Shown piece after piece: positions 42,836 to 50,271 of a stretch of 50,271 nucleotides of DNA. Every line of letters begins with the position of its first letter. The first letter of the stretch is position 1. The stretch comes from Planctomycetota bacterium. Its GTDB lineage: Bacteria; Planctomycetota; UBA8108; UBA1146. The stretch covers positions 1-50,271 of the forward strand of contig JAYZBV010000034.1 in the NCBI GenBank assembly GCA_036338595.1, read 5' to 3'. The position numbers were made by a program, and so were the translations under genes. The notes beneath the pieces are model-generated. The model saw only the letters and a program-made list of their open reading frames with translations, was not told the origin of the DNA and did no database searches.

Positions 42836-44596
42836 ATGGAGAAACTGGACTACCGGGTCAGGGCGGTGCTTGCGCGCGTCAGGAGTACCCTCGACCGATT
42901 CAGCCTCAGGCTCGAGGTGGATTGGGACTACGATGTTCGTCAGGTCCTCGAGGAGATCCTGGCACTGGCAGTGGGAGAACTGGAGTTCGGGGATGGAGCC
43001 CCGATCGACCGTGCCCTGTTGATCACCCAGGATCCCCGCGGCGACCGCCTCGAGGCAGGAGCCGGCTGGAGTGCTCAGGAAGAGGATCTCACGTTCAGTC
43101 GCACCATCGTCGAGCAGACGATGCAGGGTGGCTCCCCGATCCTGTGCGAGGACGCCCTCGATGATCCACGATTCCGGTCATCAGAGAGCCTCAGAGGGAT
43201 CCAGGTGCTGACGCTGCTGTCGGTTCCTCTACGAGCTGTGGATGAAGTGATCGGAGCGCTCTACATCGAGCGAAGGGACGCGCGACACCTCTTCAATGAA
43301 AGGGATCAGGCCTTTGTCGAGGCGCTCGCCGAGACGATTGCCCCTGCGGTTCGTACCGCTCTGATCCACCAGGACCATGTCCGCGAGTTGCGCGAACTAC
43401 GCGCGAAGACGGAAGCCACTTCGCGCATGGGGAGAATCATCGGCCATTCCACCGCCATCGTAAAAACCCTGGATCTGGCTCGTACCGCCTCGGGTCTCGA
43501 TCGGACCGTTCTCATCACTGGAGAATCTGGCGTCGGCAAGGAACTGGTCGCTCGCGCCATTCATGATCAATCGCGGCGGTCACAGAAGCCCTTCGCAGTG
43601 GTGGATTGCTCGGGGCTGTCGGAGACCCTGCTCGAGAGTGAACTCTTCGGACATGTAAGAGGCTCCTTCACCGGAGCAATTGCGGACAAGGTAGGCGCCT
43701 TCGAGGCCGCCGAGGGAGGCACCGTCTTTCTCGACGAGATCAGCGATGCCACCGCTTCGATGCAGCAGTTGCTCCGCAGAGTCTTGCAGGAGGGAGAGAT
43801 CCGGCGCGTCGGTGACCGCCAGTGGAGAAAGGTCGATGTCAGGGTTCTCTGTGCCACCAATAGAGATCTTGCCGAGGAAGTCGAGAAGGGCAATTTTCTG
43901 CTCGATCTGTTCCATCGGATGCATGAATTCCCGTTGCGACTGCCTCCTCTTCGGGAGCGAAAGGAGGACATCCCGCTGCTCTCACAGCACTTCGTGGCGC
44001 TGTTCGGAGAAACCAAGAATCCCCCCATCACCGAAGTCACTCCCGAGGCACTGGCGATCCTCGCCGGTAGAGACTGGAGAGCCAACAATGTCCGGGAACT
44101 GCGAAATGTCATCCGGCTCAGCGTCGATCTGTCCAATGGGCCTCGTATCGACTCACAGGTGCTCGACCGGGTCTTCGATGTCCGGGGTGAGCCGGGAACC
44201 GAAACCGCAACAGATACCGGTCTCGAGTTCGCCTCGGGATCGTTATTGAAATTTGATCGCGCCGGTCTCTCCGACTTGATCCGATCGACTCCTGACGAAG
44301 CGTCCAAGGAAAAGCGCCCCTGGGCGCTGCTGCAGAAGGAGTTCGGGGGCACCTTGATCACGGAAACATTGAGACAGACGCGCTGGAAACTGCGACCCGC
44401 GGCACGGATTCTCGGCATCTCGCCGGTCAAATTGAGACAGGATTTCCGGGTCTGGGTCGAGCACCTGCTGGCAGAGCATCAGGGAGATCAGCAGCAGGTC
44501 GCATCTCGCCTCGACATGCCCGCTGACTTGTTGCGAAAGAAGATGGACGACCTCGGGATCGGGGAATCGACTGGCAATGATGGGGGCCGATCATGA
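42836..44596 (+). CDS. GAF-domain sigma54-dependent transcriptional activator
   Basis: GAF (DA..DPRF..S.S.....S..VPL); GESGVGKE, ESELFGH..GSFTGA, GGT.FLDEI, LRRVLQE, ATNRDL, PPLRER.EDI, NVREL.N; C-terminal HTH. Confidence 0.95.
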   Translation: MEKLDYRVRAVLARVRSTLDRFSLRLEVDWDYDVRQVLEEILALAVGELEFGDGAPIDRALLITQDPRGDRLEAGAGWSAQEEDLTFSRTIVEQTMQGGSPILCEDALDDPRFRSSESLRGIQVLTLLSVPLRAVDEVIGALYIERRDARHLFNERDQAFVEALAETIAPAVRTALIHQDHVRELRELRAKTEATSRMGRIIGHSTAIVKTLDLARTASGLDRTVLITGESGVGKELVARAIHDQSRRSQKPFAVVDCSGLSETLLESELFGHVRGSFTGAIADKVGAFEAAEGGTVFLDEISDATASMQQLLRRVLQEGEIRRVGDRQWRKVDVRVLCATNRDLAEEVEKGNFLLDLFHRMHEFPLRLPPLRERKEDIPLLSQHFVALFGETKNPPITEVTPEALAILAGRDWRANNVRELRNVIRLSVDLSNGPRIDSQVLDRVFDVRGEPGTETATDTGLEFASGSLLKFDRAGLSDLIRSTPDEASKEKRPWALLQKEFGGTLITETLRQTRWKLRPAARILGISPVKLRQDFRVWVEHLLAEHQGDQQQVASRLDMPADLLRKKMDDLGIGESTGNDGGRS

Positions 44597-47604: not shown

Positions 47605-47767
47605 GGGCCTTTCCGGAGGCGAGGACCGGCTGGATGCTGGTCCTGATTACATCGTCTGGCGCTAGTGGAGACTTCCTGTTGTGCCTGCGTTACTTTGTCC
47701 GCTGACATGCCCTGGCGCAAGCGATGGGCAAGCGACCGACCGAAGGAAGAATGAGAGGAGAAATCGC

Positions 47768-48835
47768 GTGGCACGCGTACTGGTAGCGATGAGCGGTGGA
47801 GTCGACTCCAGCGTTGCTGCCCACCTACTACGAGAGCAGGGGCACGAGGTGATCGGAGCCTTCCTGCGGCTGGGAGACGGCGGCCAGGCGGCGGAGAAGA
47901 GCCGTGCCTGCTGCACCGTCGAAGATGCCATCGATGCCAGACGGGTCGCCGATGTGCTGGAGATCCCCTTCTACTCCTTCAACTACGCCGAGCAGTTCAG
48001 AAAGATCATCGATTACTTCGTCGACGAGTATCGAGATGGCCGTACTCCCAACCCTTGTGCCCGTTGCAACCAGTGGATCAAGTTCGATGTCTTTCACGAT
48101 CTGGCCAGAGACCTCGGTGCCGAATTCGTCGCTACCGGTCACTACGCCCAGGTCATCGAAGGCGTGGATGGTCCCCGACTCGCTCGTGGCCTCGATGGAG
48201 ACAAGGATCAATCCTACTTCCTCGCCACCGTGCCCTACTCGGTACTGAAGGAGTGCCTGTTTCCGGTCGGCGACCTTCGCAAATCCGCAGTGAGAGATCT
48301 CGCTGGAGCCGCCAGTTTGCCAGTGGTTCAGAAAGCAGAGAGCCAGGAGATCTGCTTCGTGCCCGCCAACGATTATCGTCGAGTCATCCGCAAGGAAGCT
48401 CCAGAGAGCCTCCAGCAAGGAGACATCATCGATGAGGAGGGCGACAAGATCGGGACCCACGAGGGGTACGCCGCATACACCGTCGGTCAACGCCGAGGAC
48501 TCGGCATCGCCGCCGGCGAACCACGCTATGTCGTGAAAACGGACCGAACCACCAACCAGGTAGTGCTCGGTCGCCGGGAATCATTGCTCGAGGATCAGTT
48601 CCAGATCTCCGAGATGAACTGGCTCAGACCAAAGCCACCGGAACTTCCCCTTCGCTGCACGGTTCAAATTCGCCATGGCGGCACGCCTCAGCCGTGCACG
48701 GTGGAGGTCACTCCTGCCAATGAATGGCTGCAGATATCACTCGACCAGCCGGTGTTCGCCATCGCATCGGGGCAGGTCGCTGCCCTGTACGACGACAATG
48801 TGGTACTCGGGGGAGGCTGGATCGAGAAGTCCTGA
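47768..48835 (+). CDS. mnmA: tRNA 2-thiouridine(34) synthase MnmA
   Basis: AMSGGVDSS, TPNPC..CN, ATGHYA, KDQSYFL, ESQEICF, T.GQRRG, GQ....Y. Confidence 0.97.
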   Translation: MARVLVAMSGGVDSSVAAHLLREQGHEVIGAFLRLGDGGQAAEKSRACCTVEDAIDARRVADVLEIPFYSFNYAEQFRKIIDYFVDEYRDGRTPNPCARCNQWIKFDVFHDLARDLGAEFVATGHYAQVIEGVDGPRLARGLDGDKDQSYFLATVPYSVLKECLFPVGDLRKSAVRDLAGAASLPVVQKAESQEICFVPANDYRRVIRKEAPESLQQGDIIDEEGDKIGTHEGYAAYTVGQRRGLGIAAGEPRYVVKTDRTTNQVVLGRRESLLEDQFQISEMNWLRPKPPELPLRCTVQIRHGGTPQPCTVEVTPANEWLQISLDQPVFAIASGQVAALYDDNVVLGGGWIEKS

Positions 48836-48879
48836 GGCGTCCAGCTTCCTCAGGACCTCCTGGTCGATCCACACCTGTC

Positions 48880-49857
48880 TCAGCGCCGCCGCGCGGCTCT
48901 GGCCGACGTGATCCGGTCCGCGAATTCTTGCAATTCGGTCTCGATATTCTTGACCTGCTTTTGGGTCAGTTTGTTGCGAGTTTTTCCGATCATGTCGATG
49001 AAGTGGGCGCGCTCTTCAGGCGCCACCGGGCAACCGATATTACCTTCCGGCCCATCCCCGGTGATGAGCGTCTTGCCATCTCCATCGAGAATCACCATCC
49101 AGGGGATTCCGCCGGTTTTCTTACCCCGGATCCGTGCCGCCACTTCTTTGCCACCGGTCATGCGATCGGTGTCGATTTTCAGATCGATGTAGTCGTTGGC
49201 GAGTAACTTCGATACTTCTGGTGTGCCGAGGAACTCCTCGAGCTTGCCGCACCAGCCTCACCACGGTGCACCGAGATGCAGTAACACCTTGCGGCCATCC
49301 TTCTTCGCTTGCTTCAACGCCGCTGCCAGCACCTTCTCGGCATCTTCCGGGGGCGTCTTCTGCTCCTGCAGGAACTTTTCGACCTTGGCGCTATCGTGAT
49401 GGTCTCCCTCTTCCAGGTCGCCGGTGTTCTGGTTGGCCACGACCTTGCCAGATCCATCCAGGACGGTGATGTAGGGAACCCCCTGCTTCTTCAACTTCGC
49501 ACCATACTTCTCGGTGATGCTCATATTCTTGTCGAAGTGACCGATGTCTACCTTCACCACTTCGTATTCATAGCGGACAGTTCGCGCCACGGTTCGATCC
49601 TTCTTGAAGAACTGATCGAGTTTGACGCACCACCCGCACCAGTTGCCGCCGAAGACCACCATCACACGCTTGTGATTCTTGCCTGCCCTGGCCACTGCAG
49701 CGGCAATGTCTGCAGCCGCATCGGCGTTCTCATCGTAGACGGCAGGAGCGTCTTTCTTCTCGACAGCCTCCTTCGCTTCCTGGCCAAGGACTTGAGCGGC
49801 CGGAATTTGAACGATCAGGATCAAGATCAGAGACAGGAAACCAGGTTTGAGATTCAT
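48880..49857 (-). CDS. Exported tandem thioredoxin-fold protein, probable selenoprotein (in-frame TGA at 49258-49260)
   Basis: Track ORFs 49258..49866 and 48880..49161 share a frame, and the only interruption is one TGA: LHLGAPW-TGA-GWCGKLEEFL...DYIDLKIDTDRM. Domain 1 has GGNWCGWCVKL and GVPY; domain 2 has GIPW. Confidence 0.88.
49218..49255 (-). promoter_or_regulatory. Candidate bacterial SECIS element
   Basis: mRNA after the UGA: GG-CUGGUG-CGGCAAGCU-CGAGG-AGUU-CCUCG-GCA-CACCAG. Lower stem CUGGUG/CACCAG, upper stem CGAGG/CCUCG, apical loop AGUU 22 nt after the UGA. Confidence 0.7.
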
Positions 49858-50033
49858 CTGACGCACCCCTTCCTCAGCATGACGACCTTGTCGATGACAG
49901 GAATCACCTGCGATCGATCAGTCGGCATCGTAGCAGGGATGAGGGGTGGCATCAGCCAACGACTACGAGCGGTAGAGACTGGCATGAGCTGGTTTCTTCC
50001 TCGATGCTGATCGCTCACGGGAGGGACTACAGC

Positions 50034-50271
50034 ATGGACGATCGGTGGATCCAGGAACAGATCGACAACTGGGTTTCTGATTTCCTCATCGACGATGCGG
50101 GCGACCGTGTCGATCCCGCACTGGCACCTCATGCTCAGGGAATTCTCGCTACCTTTCTACGCCACGCCTGCTCGGTTCGTCAGGTTGCCCCGGACGCCAT
50201 CGAGGAGAAAGACGTCCGTGCTGGACTGCTTGATGGGCTCGGCTCACTCTCCCTCTCCGAGAAACTACAGC
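50034..50271 (+). CDS. Hypothetical protein, 3' end outside the window
   Basis: ATG 50034 after GGGAGGGA; frame is open to the window edge (MDDRWIQEQIDNWVSDFLIDDAGDRVDPALAPHAQGILATFL...). Confidence 0.65.
   Translation, partial: MDDRWIQEQIDNWVSDFLIDDAGDRVDPALAPHAQGILATFLRHACSVRQVAPDAIEEKDVRAGLLDGLGSLSLSEKLQ

Follow-up and report, generated by a model that had tools for sequence, protein, structure and literature searches.

A minus-strand gene in the window (the whole 50,271-nucleotide stretch of Planctomycetota DNA analysed here) almost certainly encodes a selenoprotein, with the UGA at codon 200 specifying selenocysteine (Sec), as judged from comparative sequence evidence. Its product as a whole is best explained, with good confidence, as an exported two-domain thiol-disulfide oxidoreductase with Sec at residue 200. 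When read through, the gene is a single frame of 325 codons that starts with an ATG at 49857, ends with a TGA at 48880–48882, and is interrupted only by the TGA of codon 200; standard ORF calling splits it into two pieces (49258–49866 and 48880–49161). The TGA falls on the first Cys of a duplicated active site, GGNW-C74-GW-C77 in domain 1 and LGAPW-TGA-GW-C203 in domain 2, and both halves have a cis-Pro loop (GVPY with Pro128 and GIPW with Pro252). These features were part of the initial annotation, which had joined the two called ORFs into one frame with no strand given, assigned an N-terminal signal peptide to the product, and held that TGA is not globally reassigned; all of them withstood the analysis, and for the last point both an ATGA overlap at 44593–44596 and the TGA stop of an mnmA gene proved real. 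The features of the gene are listed in Table 1.

Table 1. Positions of the selenoprotein gene and its features in the window.
Feature	Position	Strand	Basis or remark
Whole gene	48880..49857	−	325 codons via TGA codon 200; relatives (P0002, P0003) share the ATG start
Possible alternative start	in-frame GTG at 49866	−	ORF inspection
Predicted signal peptide, residues ~1–25, likely cleavage before Q26	49783..49857	−	Hydropathy, by hand; same layout in relatives
Domain 1, thioredoxin fold (Thioredoxin_7 type), residues ~37–168	49354..49749	−	Pfam, model, PDB 3FK8 alignment
C74-G-W-C77 motif, domain 1	49627..49638	−	Sequence, relatives
Domain 2, selenocysteine module, residues ~172–324	48886..49344	−	Thioredoxin fold and two added C-terminal helices; Pfam, model, fold search
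TGA, very probably selenocysteine 200, first position of U200-G-W-C203	49258..49260	−	Alignment of relatives
Cys203, resolving residue of UxxC	49249..49251	−	Invariant in 128/128 aligned sequences
Bacterial SECIS, 6-bp stem, AGUU tetraloop beginning 22 nt after UGA	49226..49241	−	Conservation and consensus (PMC13188914)
Pro252, cis-Pro position of domain 2	49102..49104	−	Invariant in 128/128 aligned sequences; cis geometry predicted from the fold
Cys276 in G275-C276-P277	49030..49032	−	Cys or other small residue where position 200 is Sec; aromatic where it is Cys

Conservation on both sides of codon 200 argues that the TGA is a sense codon. Full-length matches were found at 18 loci in 61 related genomes (two of the loci from the source assembly), with TGA at codon 200 in 17 and TGC in one, and the TGA form is kept down to about 39% identity. 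Among the 120 proteins listed of the 587 that passed the E-value threshold, all 111 full-length homologues have Cys at position 200, and the remaining nine end at the residue just before the TGA position. The pattern foreseen for a genuine Sec codon, i.e., homologues with Cys or TGA at this position and conserved sequence on either side, is therefore present. The downstream disablements expected of a decaying gene are not seen in the relatives, where the frame stays open for 117–126 codons past the TGA in all 16 complete TGA loci. Median dN/dS values for 12 close sequences are 0.09 before the TGA, from 60 measurable pairs of 66, and 0.11 after it, from 52 of 66; together with the conservation and the hairpin described below, they imply that the reading frame is more than chance. 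Two samples of 61 and 401 genomes hold 38 genomes, of many families, with the TGA form; because kin among the genomes are not independent, such counts overstate the support. A nonsense mutation, a pseudogene or an assembly error might be suspected from the state of the assembly (88% complete, 7% contamination) and from a second, near-identical copy of the gene within it, but the same TGA recurs in the 38 genomes, the downstream frame is open in every complete TGA locus and under purifying selection, and a contig from another public run (X2 record 7) spans codon 200 without a difference, though on one side it extends for just 24 letters. The probability of such an artefact is negligible, the conservation having already refuted it. 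The second copy (L049, G000:C21:1-1292) takes in the gene together with the region upstream, shows 95.2% identity across 1294 nt, and has the TGA and the hairpin as well; it shares an overlap with the contig of the window at the latter's end and probably represents a second strain in the bin.

Read-through corrects a systematic annotation error, in that the deposited proteins of relatives end at the UGA. Among the 120 listed database proteins, all nine matches with more than 70% identity are cut there, four of four inspected longer or odd members of the truncated clusters likewise stop before the TGA, and a 199-residue record (P0127) is identical to the first 199 residues of the product and ends at the Trp preceding the UGA, so the splitting of the gene by automated annotation, as anticipated, is on record. 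In another relative's GenBank record (P0130), the truncated protein is begun far upstream, over the antisense of the divergent plus-strand ORF at 50004–50271, which is itself ended by the contig edge. A search of 27 same-family genomes with the window gene as query left 12 without a match, among them all eight of genus g7, where selA and selB are present, so that the gene is dispensable.

All four genes of the Sec machinery, for which a genome search had been proposed, are present in the source genome: selA, selD and tRNA-Sec (selC) are clustered on contig C72 and selB lies on C108, with selA, selB and selD scoring over their cut-offs. In the cluster (G000:C72:32141-34795, minus strand), SelD has a CxxU motif with an in-frame TGA and a hairpin of its own. 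Genomes with the TGA form contain selB in 38 of 38 cases and selA in 37 of 38, the one without a selA match (G011) being 82% complete, and four genomes at 99% completeness contain neither selA nor selB: domain 2 was detected in three of them, each time in the Cys form, and the fourth matched domain 1 only. Sec-competent genomes may hold either version of the protein, since selA is also found in 18 of 21 genomes with the Cys form, and the switch between Cys and Sec goes along with a change at one loop residue of the active site.

The AGUU hairpin (−11.8 to −17.5 kcal/mol, according to the folding window) falls within the bacterial SECIS consensus, which specifies a loop of 3–9 nt with a G among its first two positions, a stem of 4–16 bp, a distance of 16–37 nt from the UGA, and an MFE of −7.5 or lower (PMC13188914, section 5). 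For loci from protein searches that did not use the hairpin, it occurs in 39 of 41 TGA forms (L068 and L075 are those without it) vs none of 22 Cys forms. The synonymous difference at codons 206–210 is 0.00 in 66 pairs, compared with 0.60 and 0.64 in the flanks, and the variable stem positions stay paired (A-U in 35 and G-U in 6 of 41 at one, U-G in 25 and U-A in 14 of 41 at the other) through one-sided changes, no two-sided change being seen among the 41 TGA forms. The hairpin fixes the peptide LEEFL, an RNA signal thus setting five protein residues across a phylum. The case for a SECIS rests on conservation, since the 91 nt that begin with the UGA fold with an unremarkable energy (z −0.62) and hairpins loosely resembling a SECIS are frequent, mostly by chance (280 candidates in the source genome); no Rfam match was obtained within 48000–50271. 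Taken together, the UGA/Cys alignment, the SECIS, the sel genes, and the coding conservation on both sides are those of a bacterial selenoprotein.

Insertion of Trp or Cys at the UGA, through a changed code or a suppressor, would also give a full-length product, and a decoder of Trp codons is unseen in the source genome, where ARAGORN reported neither tRNA-Trp nor tRNA-Ile among 40 tRNAs, as fits an incomplete assembly. Ordinary genes of the genome end in TGA, however, the sole TCA-anticodon tRNA found is tRNA-Sec, position 200 is Cys and never Trp in the full-length homologues, and the occurrence of the hairpin follows that of the TGA. Recoding to Trp or Cys is thus very improbable, and Sec insertion is the reading that we adopt.

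In Pfam, the read-through protein is best matched by Thioredoxin_7 (PF13899; 87 bits, two stretches), and it passes the cut-offs of PF00085 and PF13098, the latter with 58.2 bits vs 27 and the best stretch in domain 1; a stand-alone Sec domain (L121) scores 36 against PF13098. The AlphaFold model, based on a 128-sequence alignment, has two thioredoxin folds (pLDDT 93, pTM 0.84), and a model of domain 2 folded from its single sequence (pLDDT 44) was left unused. Domain 1 superimposes on PDB 3FK8 with a Z score of 19.7 and an rmsd of 1.9 over 128 residues (sequence E 1.5e-20), and residues 172–295 of domain 2 align to thioredoxins h (Z 11.8). Taken per domain, 3FK8 is followed in fold similarity by the C-terminal domains of DsbD, by thioredoxins, and by DsbH, and in Foldseek the next matches after 3FK8 are tandem domains of the PDI family. 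The N-terminus has a basic residue and a hydrophobic core whose 10-residue Kyte-Doolittle value, checked by hand, peaks at 3.49 at residue 7, as fits a signal peptide, and hydropathy gives no sign of a further membrane span in the read-through protein (highest mean over 19 residues 0.83).

Based on these features, a mechanism of four steps can be proposed. SelB with Sec-tRNA would bind the hairpin and insert Sec at residue 200, a step that is strongly supported by the sequence and that we regard as nearly certain, and the signal peptide would then direct the protein to the periplasm, which is likely. There, by analogy with thioredoxin chemistry, the U200 selenolate would attack substrate disulfides or oxidised thiols and Cys203 would resolve the intermediate, with the cis-Pro loop positioning the substrate (compare the excerpted PMC13269488); with selenium, the nucleophile would stay reactive even when the pH is low or the conditions are oxidising. 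Domain 2 would be the conserved working unit, and domain 1 may be either an independent, dispensable second site or a substrate-binding partner, comparable to the catalytic and non-catalytic domains of PDI. In the last step, the enzyme, as a reductase or isomerase, would be re-reduced by the DsbD of the same genome, an assignment that we favour by a narrow measure. DsbD is the usual electron source, or hub, of periplasmic reductases according to the excerpted PMC3322552, and its presence in the source genome together with the reductase type of the nearest folds points to a reductase. The DsbD gene (L215, G000:C106:1-2172, minus strand) runs off the contig end, and the N-terminal part of its product apparently comprises two domains that each contain a C-x4-C pair.

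The selenoprotein could alternatively belong to the oxidising branch and work as a dithiol oxidase or isomerase, with a VKOR-DsbA fusion to reoxidise it. Such a fusion of about 425 residues is encoded in the genome (L216, G000:C57:27663-28937, plus strand), and the PDI-family matches in Foldseek are in line with this role. The helical insertion of DsbA is absent from the model, however, the PDI matches have an rmsd of 9–18 Å over the whole chain, and the closest per-domain folds (DsbD C-terminal domain, thioredoxin h, DsbH) are of the reductase type, which together make an oxidising role unlikely. DsbB was not found in the 88%-complete source genome.

The distribution of the Sec domain bears on the roles of the two domains. 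A scan for the TGA and hairpin pattern with one genome per species gave at least 118 matches, and 117 of the 118 listed are domain 2 homologues; this set holds the hairpin by construction and was excluded from the argument for it. The matches listed include 80 titled loci, of which 74 are labelled as Planctomycetota or a group within, five only as 'bacterium', and one as Myxococcota. In these 80 SECIS-bearing genes, domain 1 has an intact CxxC in 11, lacks the CxxC in 39, and is not detectable in 30. Their architectures, the classes of which are approximate because some loci lie at contig ends, comprise an intact CxxC domain followed by the Sec domain, as in the window gene (11 of the 80), domain 1 without CxxC followed by the Sec domain (23), the same arrangement with a Dioxygenase_C-like tail (5: L101, L108, L142, L146, and L153; Pfam on one), a Sec redoxin followed by a dead domain 1 and the Sec domain (11), a Sec redoxin followed by the Sec domain (10) or preceded by it (2), the Sec domain with DUF885 (2: L149 and L169; Pfam on one), and the Sec domain alone (16). 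Double-Sec fusions, in which a Sec redoxin is joined to the Sec domain in either order, account for 23 of the 80 titled loci among the matches listed (L085, L086, L088, L089, L092, L097, L104, L143, L170, and others). By a crude rule, 71 of 77 Sec genes have signal-like N-termini. The predominance of signal-like N-termini and the small share of intact CxxC motifs show that domain 2 is the core of the family, nearly always exported, and that domain 1 can do without its CxxC. Domain 2 is probably an uncatalogued Sec module that has been shuffled into many exported proteins of Planctomycetota.

This distribution also affects two further proposals of the initial annotation, namely that the protein is a periplasmic relay pairing a thiol and a selenol site in one chain, and that stopping at the UGA leaves an intact domain 1, so that selenium supply could switch between two isoforms. 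Its overall reading of one exported gene, split by annotation, with UGA as Sec, holds up, but the dedicated relay and a selenium-controlled switch between two useful isoforms find no support, since only 11 of the 80 Sec genes among the matches listed keep the domain-1 CxxC, and in the other 69 a product that stops at the UGA would contain neither active site of the pair. Electron passage between C74/C77 and U200/C203, combined with a switch by selenium between the full-length protein and a useful short form with Cys only, would agree with the retention, in the window lineage, of the CxxC in a well-conserved domain 1 (mean dN 0.116 vs 0.229 downstream in the 12 close sequences), with the presence of both motifs in 110 of 111 full-length Cys homologues (among the 120 listed, from a search biased to intact domain 1), and with the leakiness of UGA recoding in E. 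coli, where it is only 30–40% efficient (excerpted PMC4513850). Domain-1 cysteines are lost in Cys forms too (L035, L082, L093), however, and the two-domain layout, being the norm in Cys forms, predates selenium. The short product, moreover, ends inside domain 2: according to the model, its 199 residues should include a helix and a hydrophobic strand of domain 2 (residues 173–199), and it is thus probably not a clean domain 1. The combination of relay and switch is accordingly quite improbable. In view of the recoding efficiency in E. coli, some truncated protein is likely made as a by-product, but no sign of selection for it is seen here.

Sec forms of other kinds were also observed. Among the matches listed of a metagenome scan, which are mostly chance, nine domain-1-type (3FK8-like) proteins have a TGA at their own first Cys (L222, L247, L257, L264, L278, L280, L289, L299, and L333); these are signal-bearing and have different downstream sequence, and eight end after the single domain while one is incomplete, making them a candidate second Sec subfamily. 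The matches listed also include four stand-alone domain-2-type TGA proteins without the AGUU hairpin. In the family at large, selenium has therefore been taken up into domains of either type, and no two-domain gene with Sec in domain 1 occurs among the 118 matches listed of the metagenome scan. Hairpin-less TGA forms of domain 2 (L068, L075, L226, L276, L313, and L328) represent either independent Sec origins with different SECIS elements or nonsense alleles. As regards the hairpin type, the 12–14 apparent switches on the free tree are no evidence for repeated origin of Sec, because a single clade for the 44 hairpin (SECIS)-type Sec forms is not rejected (p-AU 0.51). In the source genome itself, a motif version of the selenoproteome scan, with gene counts too noisy for any other use, served only for picking out recognisable families. 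Two candidate selenoproteins (G000:C38:9208, minus strand, and G000:C77:30010, plus strand) are TlpA-like redoxins with a W-U-G-P-C motif and signal-like N-termini, and their hairpins have a GGUC loop on a stem resembling that of the window gene. Another candidate, with C-G-U, is present in two near-identical copies (G000:C33:5111, minus strand, and G000:C93:3131, plus strand) and resembles what we take, from its motif, to be the catalogued UshA-like CxU family.

Sec and Cys forms of domain 2 differ at position 276, which is flanked by Gly275 and Pro277, both invariant in the 128-sequence alignment. After removal of too-short and distant rows, and of 35 duplicates from the 286 sequences left, 251 non-identical domain 2 sequences were compared. 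In the 121 Sec forms, residue 276 is Cys in 92, Gly in 16, Ala in 4, Phe in 7, and Tyr in 2, and in the 130 Cys forms it is Phe in 67, Tyr in 49, His in 5, Cys in 8, and Met in 1, i.e., Cys, Gly or Ala in 112 of 121 Sec forms vs Phe, Tyr or His in 121 of 130 Cys forms. When the comparison is restricted to the 62 sequences that came solely from genome searches by protein, Cys276 occurs in 36 of 41 Sec forms vs 3 of 21 Cys forms, and the four hairpin-less stand-alone forms have Ser. By the order of secondary structure in the model, residue 276 lies in the loop after the last strand and before the last helix of the fold, and in thioredoxin the same loop lines the substrate groove. Two readings can be given, a third redox residue or the loss of a bulky side chain, and the substitution by Gly, Ala, and Ser favours the steric one. 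Co-evolution of Sec and Cys276 was considered and is not demonstrated, as only two independent pairs of the Sec/276 change fall on well-supported branches, and the link may be a single ancestral event. An analogy to the C-terminal resolving Cys of monothiol glutaredoxins was dropped, finding no support in the excerpted literature passages. It is conceivable, but doubtful, that the shuffled domain 2 forms a periplasmic selenol network in which Cys276 makes an alternative selenenyl-sulfide with U200, rescuing oxidised selenium or trapping substrates; if so, the active site of domain 2 would have three redox residues, with Cys276 on a loop beside the nucleophile.

The surroundings of the gene are variable. 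A plus-strand mnmA-type tRNA thiouridylase gene (47681–48835) converges on the selenoprotein gene, and relatives have other genes on that side, so that this adjacency is not conserved; clustering of the neighbourhoods of 118 loci gave no partner gene common beyond close kin, and neither a promoter-like site nor a minus-strand terminator was found for the gene. Fourteen DNA runs from six studies contain at least half of the gene's words, and 13 of them are labelled marine or seawater. RNA runs with small word shares were excluded from this habitat reading, and contigs from RNA libraries match only parts of the gene, by which expression is not demonstrated.

With this protein the bacterial selenoproteome gains a sizeable family from Planctomycetota, which, with Cys and Sec sites in one chain, offers a natural test bed for the replacement of sulfur by selenium. 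The understanding of recoding or of thioredoxin chemistry is unchanged, and what will interest specialists is the shuffled module, the RNA signal with its frozen synonymous sites, and residue 276. A tandem CxxC/UxxC family was not found in the open-access literature or the catalogues compared. The excerpted Table 1 of PMC13188914 (119 families) has several UxxC thioredoxin-fold families, for two of which the window protein exceeds the cut-off of the Pfam label, none in the excerpt being a tandem CxxC/UxxC protein or carrying the PF13899 label, and exported selenoproteins, with ABC substrate-binding and outer-membrane examples, are already catalogued there. In the four supplement files of the GOS selenoprotein dataset, as excerpted, the motifs of the window family are absent, and the main text of deep-Sep and BSepDB, as excerpted, has no mention of Planctomycetes or thioredoxin; the 57,630 entries of BSepDB may hold such genes under a broad family. 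For the planctomycete P1, two 'thiol-disulfide isomerase-like thioredoxin' selenoprotein candidates with no SECIS are given in the excerpted S9 Table of PMC4807772. Compared by description only, these resemble the window gene in being planctomycete, thioredoxin-like, and split into two genes.

Among individual families, the thiol:disulfide interchange selenoprotein (PF13098, representative WP_011366075.1) comes close, sharing the UxxC thioredoxin fold, a SECIS within the ORF, and many Cys homologues; the window protein has PF13098 over its cut-off and a UxxC motif. By label and motif, as far as the excerpted catalogue allows comparison, the window protein differs in being tandem, with mixed CxxC/UxxC, and in matching PF13899 best. 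None of 19 listed NCBIfam named selenoprotein families reaches its cut-off, and the curated families Trx7/PDZ (NF041199, 16.3 vs 300) and TsoB (NF045694, 59.8 vs 805), which have a related thioredoxin domain, differ in architecture and in their Sec motifs, CxxU and UxxxxU in the excerpted descriptions. Protein disulfide isomerase and ERp72 likewise carry thioredoxin domains in tandem, and across their family some of the copies are catalytic and others are not. The window protein falls outside that family, with two domains rather than a four-domain layout, CGWC/UGWC motifs, poor whole-chain superposition, and scores below the cut-offs (TIGR01126 38.5 vs 107.2, TIGR01130 27.5 vs 344.25).

The closest solved relative of domain 1 is PDB 3FK8 from Xylella fastidiosa, a 'disulphide isomerase' by the depositors' label, which unlike the window protein is a single domain of 133 residues with Cys only. 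DsbH and the C-terminal domain of DsbD are periplasmic CxxC thioredoxin-fold domains of the reducing pathway. DsbH (NF043050, PDB 2JU5) and the DsbD domain resemble the thioredoxin-fold domains of the window protein (Z 11.6–12.1), but the window protein has two such domains, no membrane domain, and selenocysteine, and scores 60.9 bits against the DsbH cut-off of 190. In this company the window gene almost certainly encodes, by its sequence relationships, a genuine selenoprotein of a rather ordinary kind, which belongs to a widespread family and fits the known class of UxxC thioredoxin folds.
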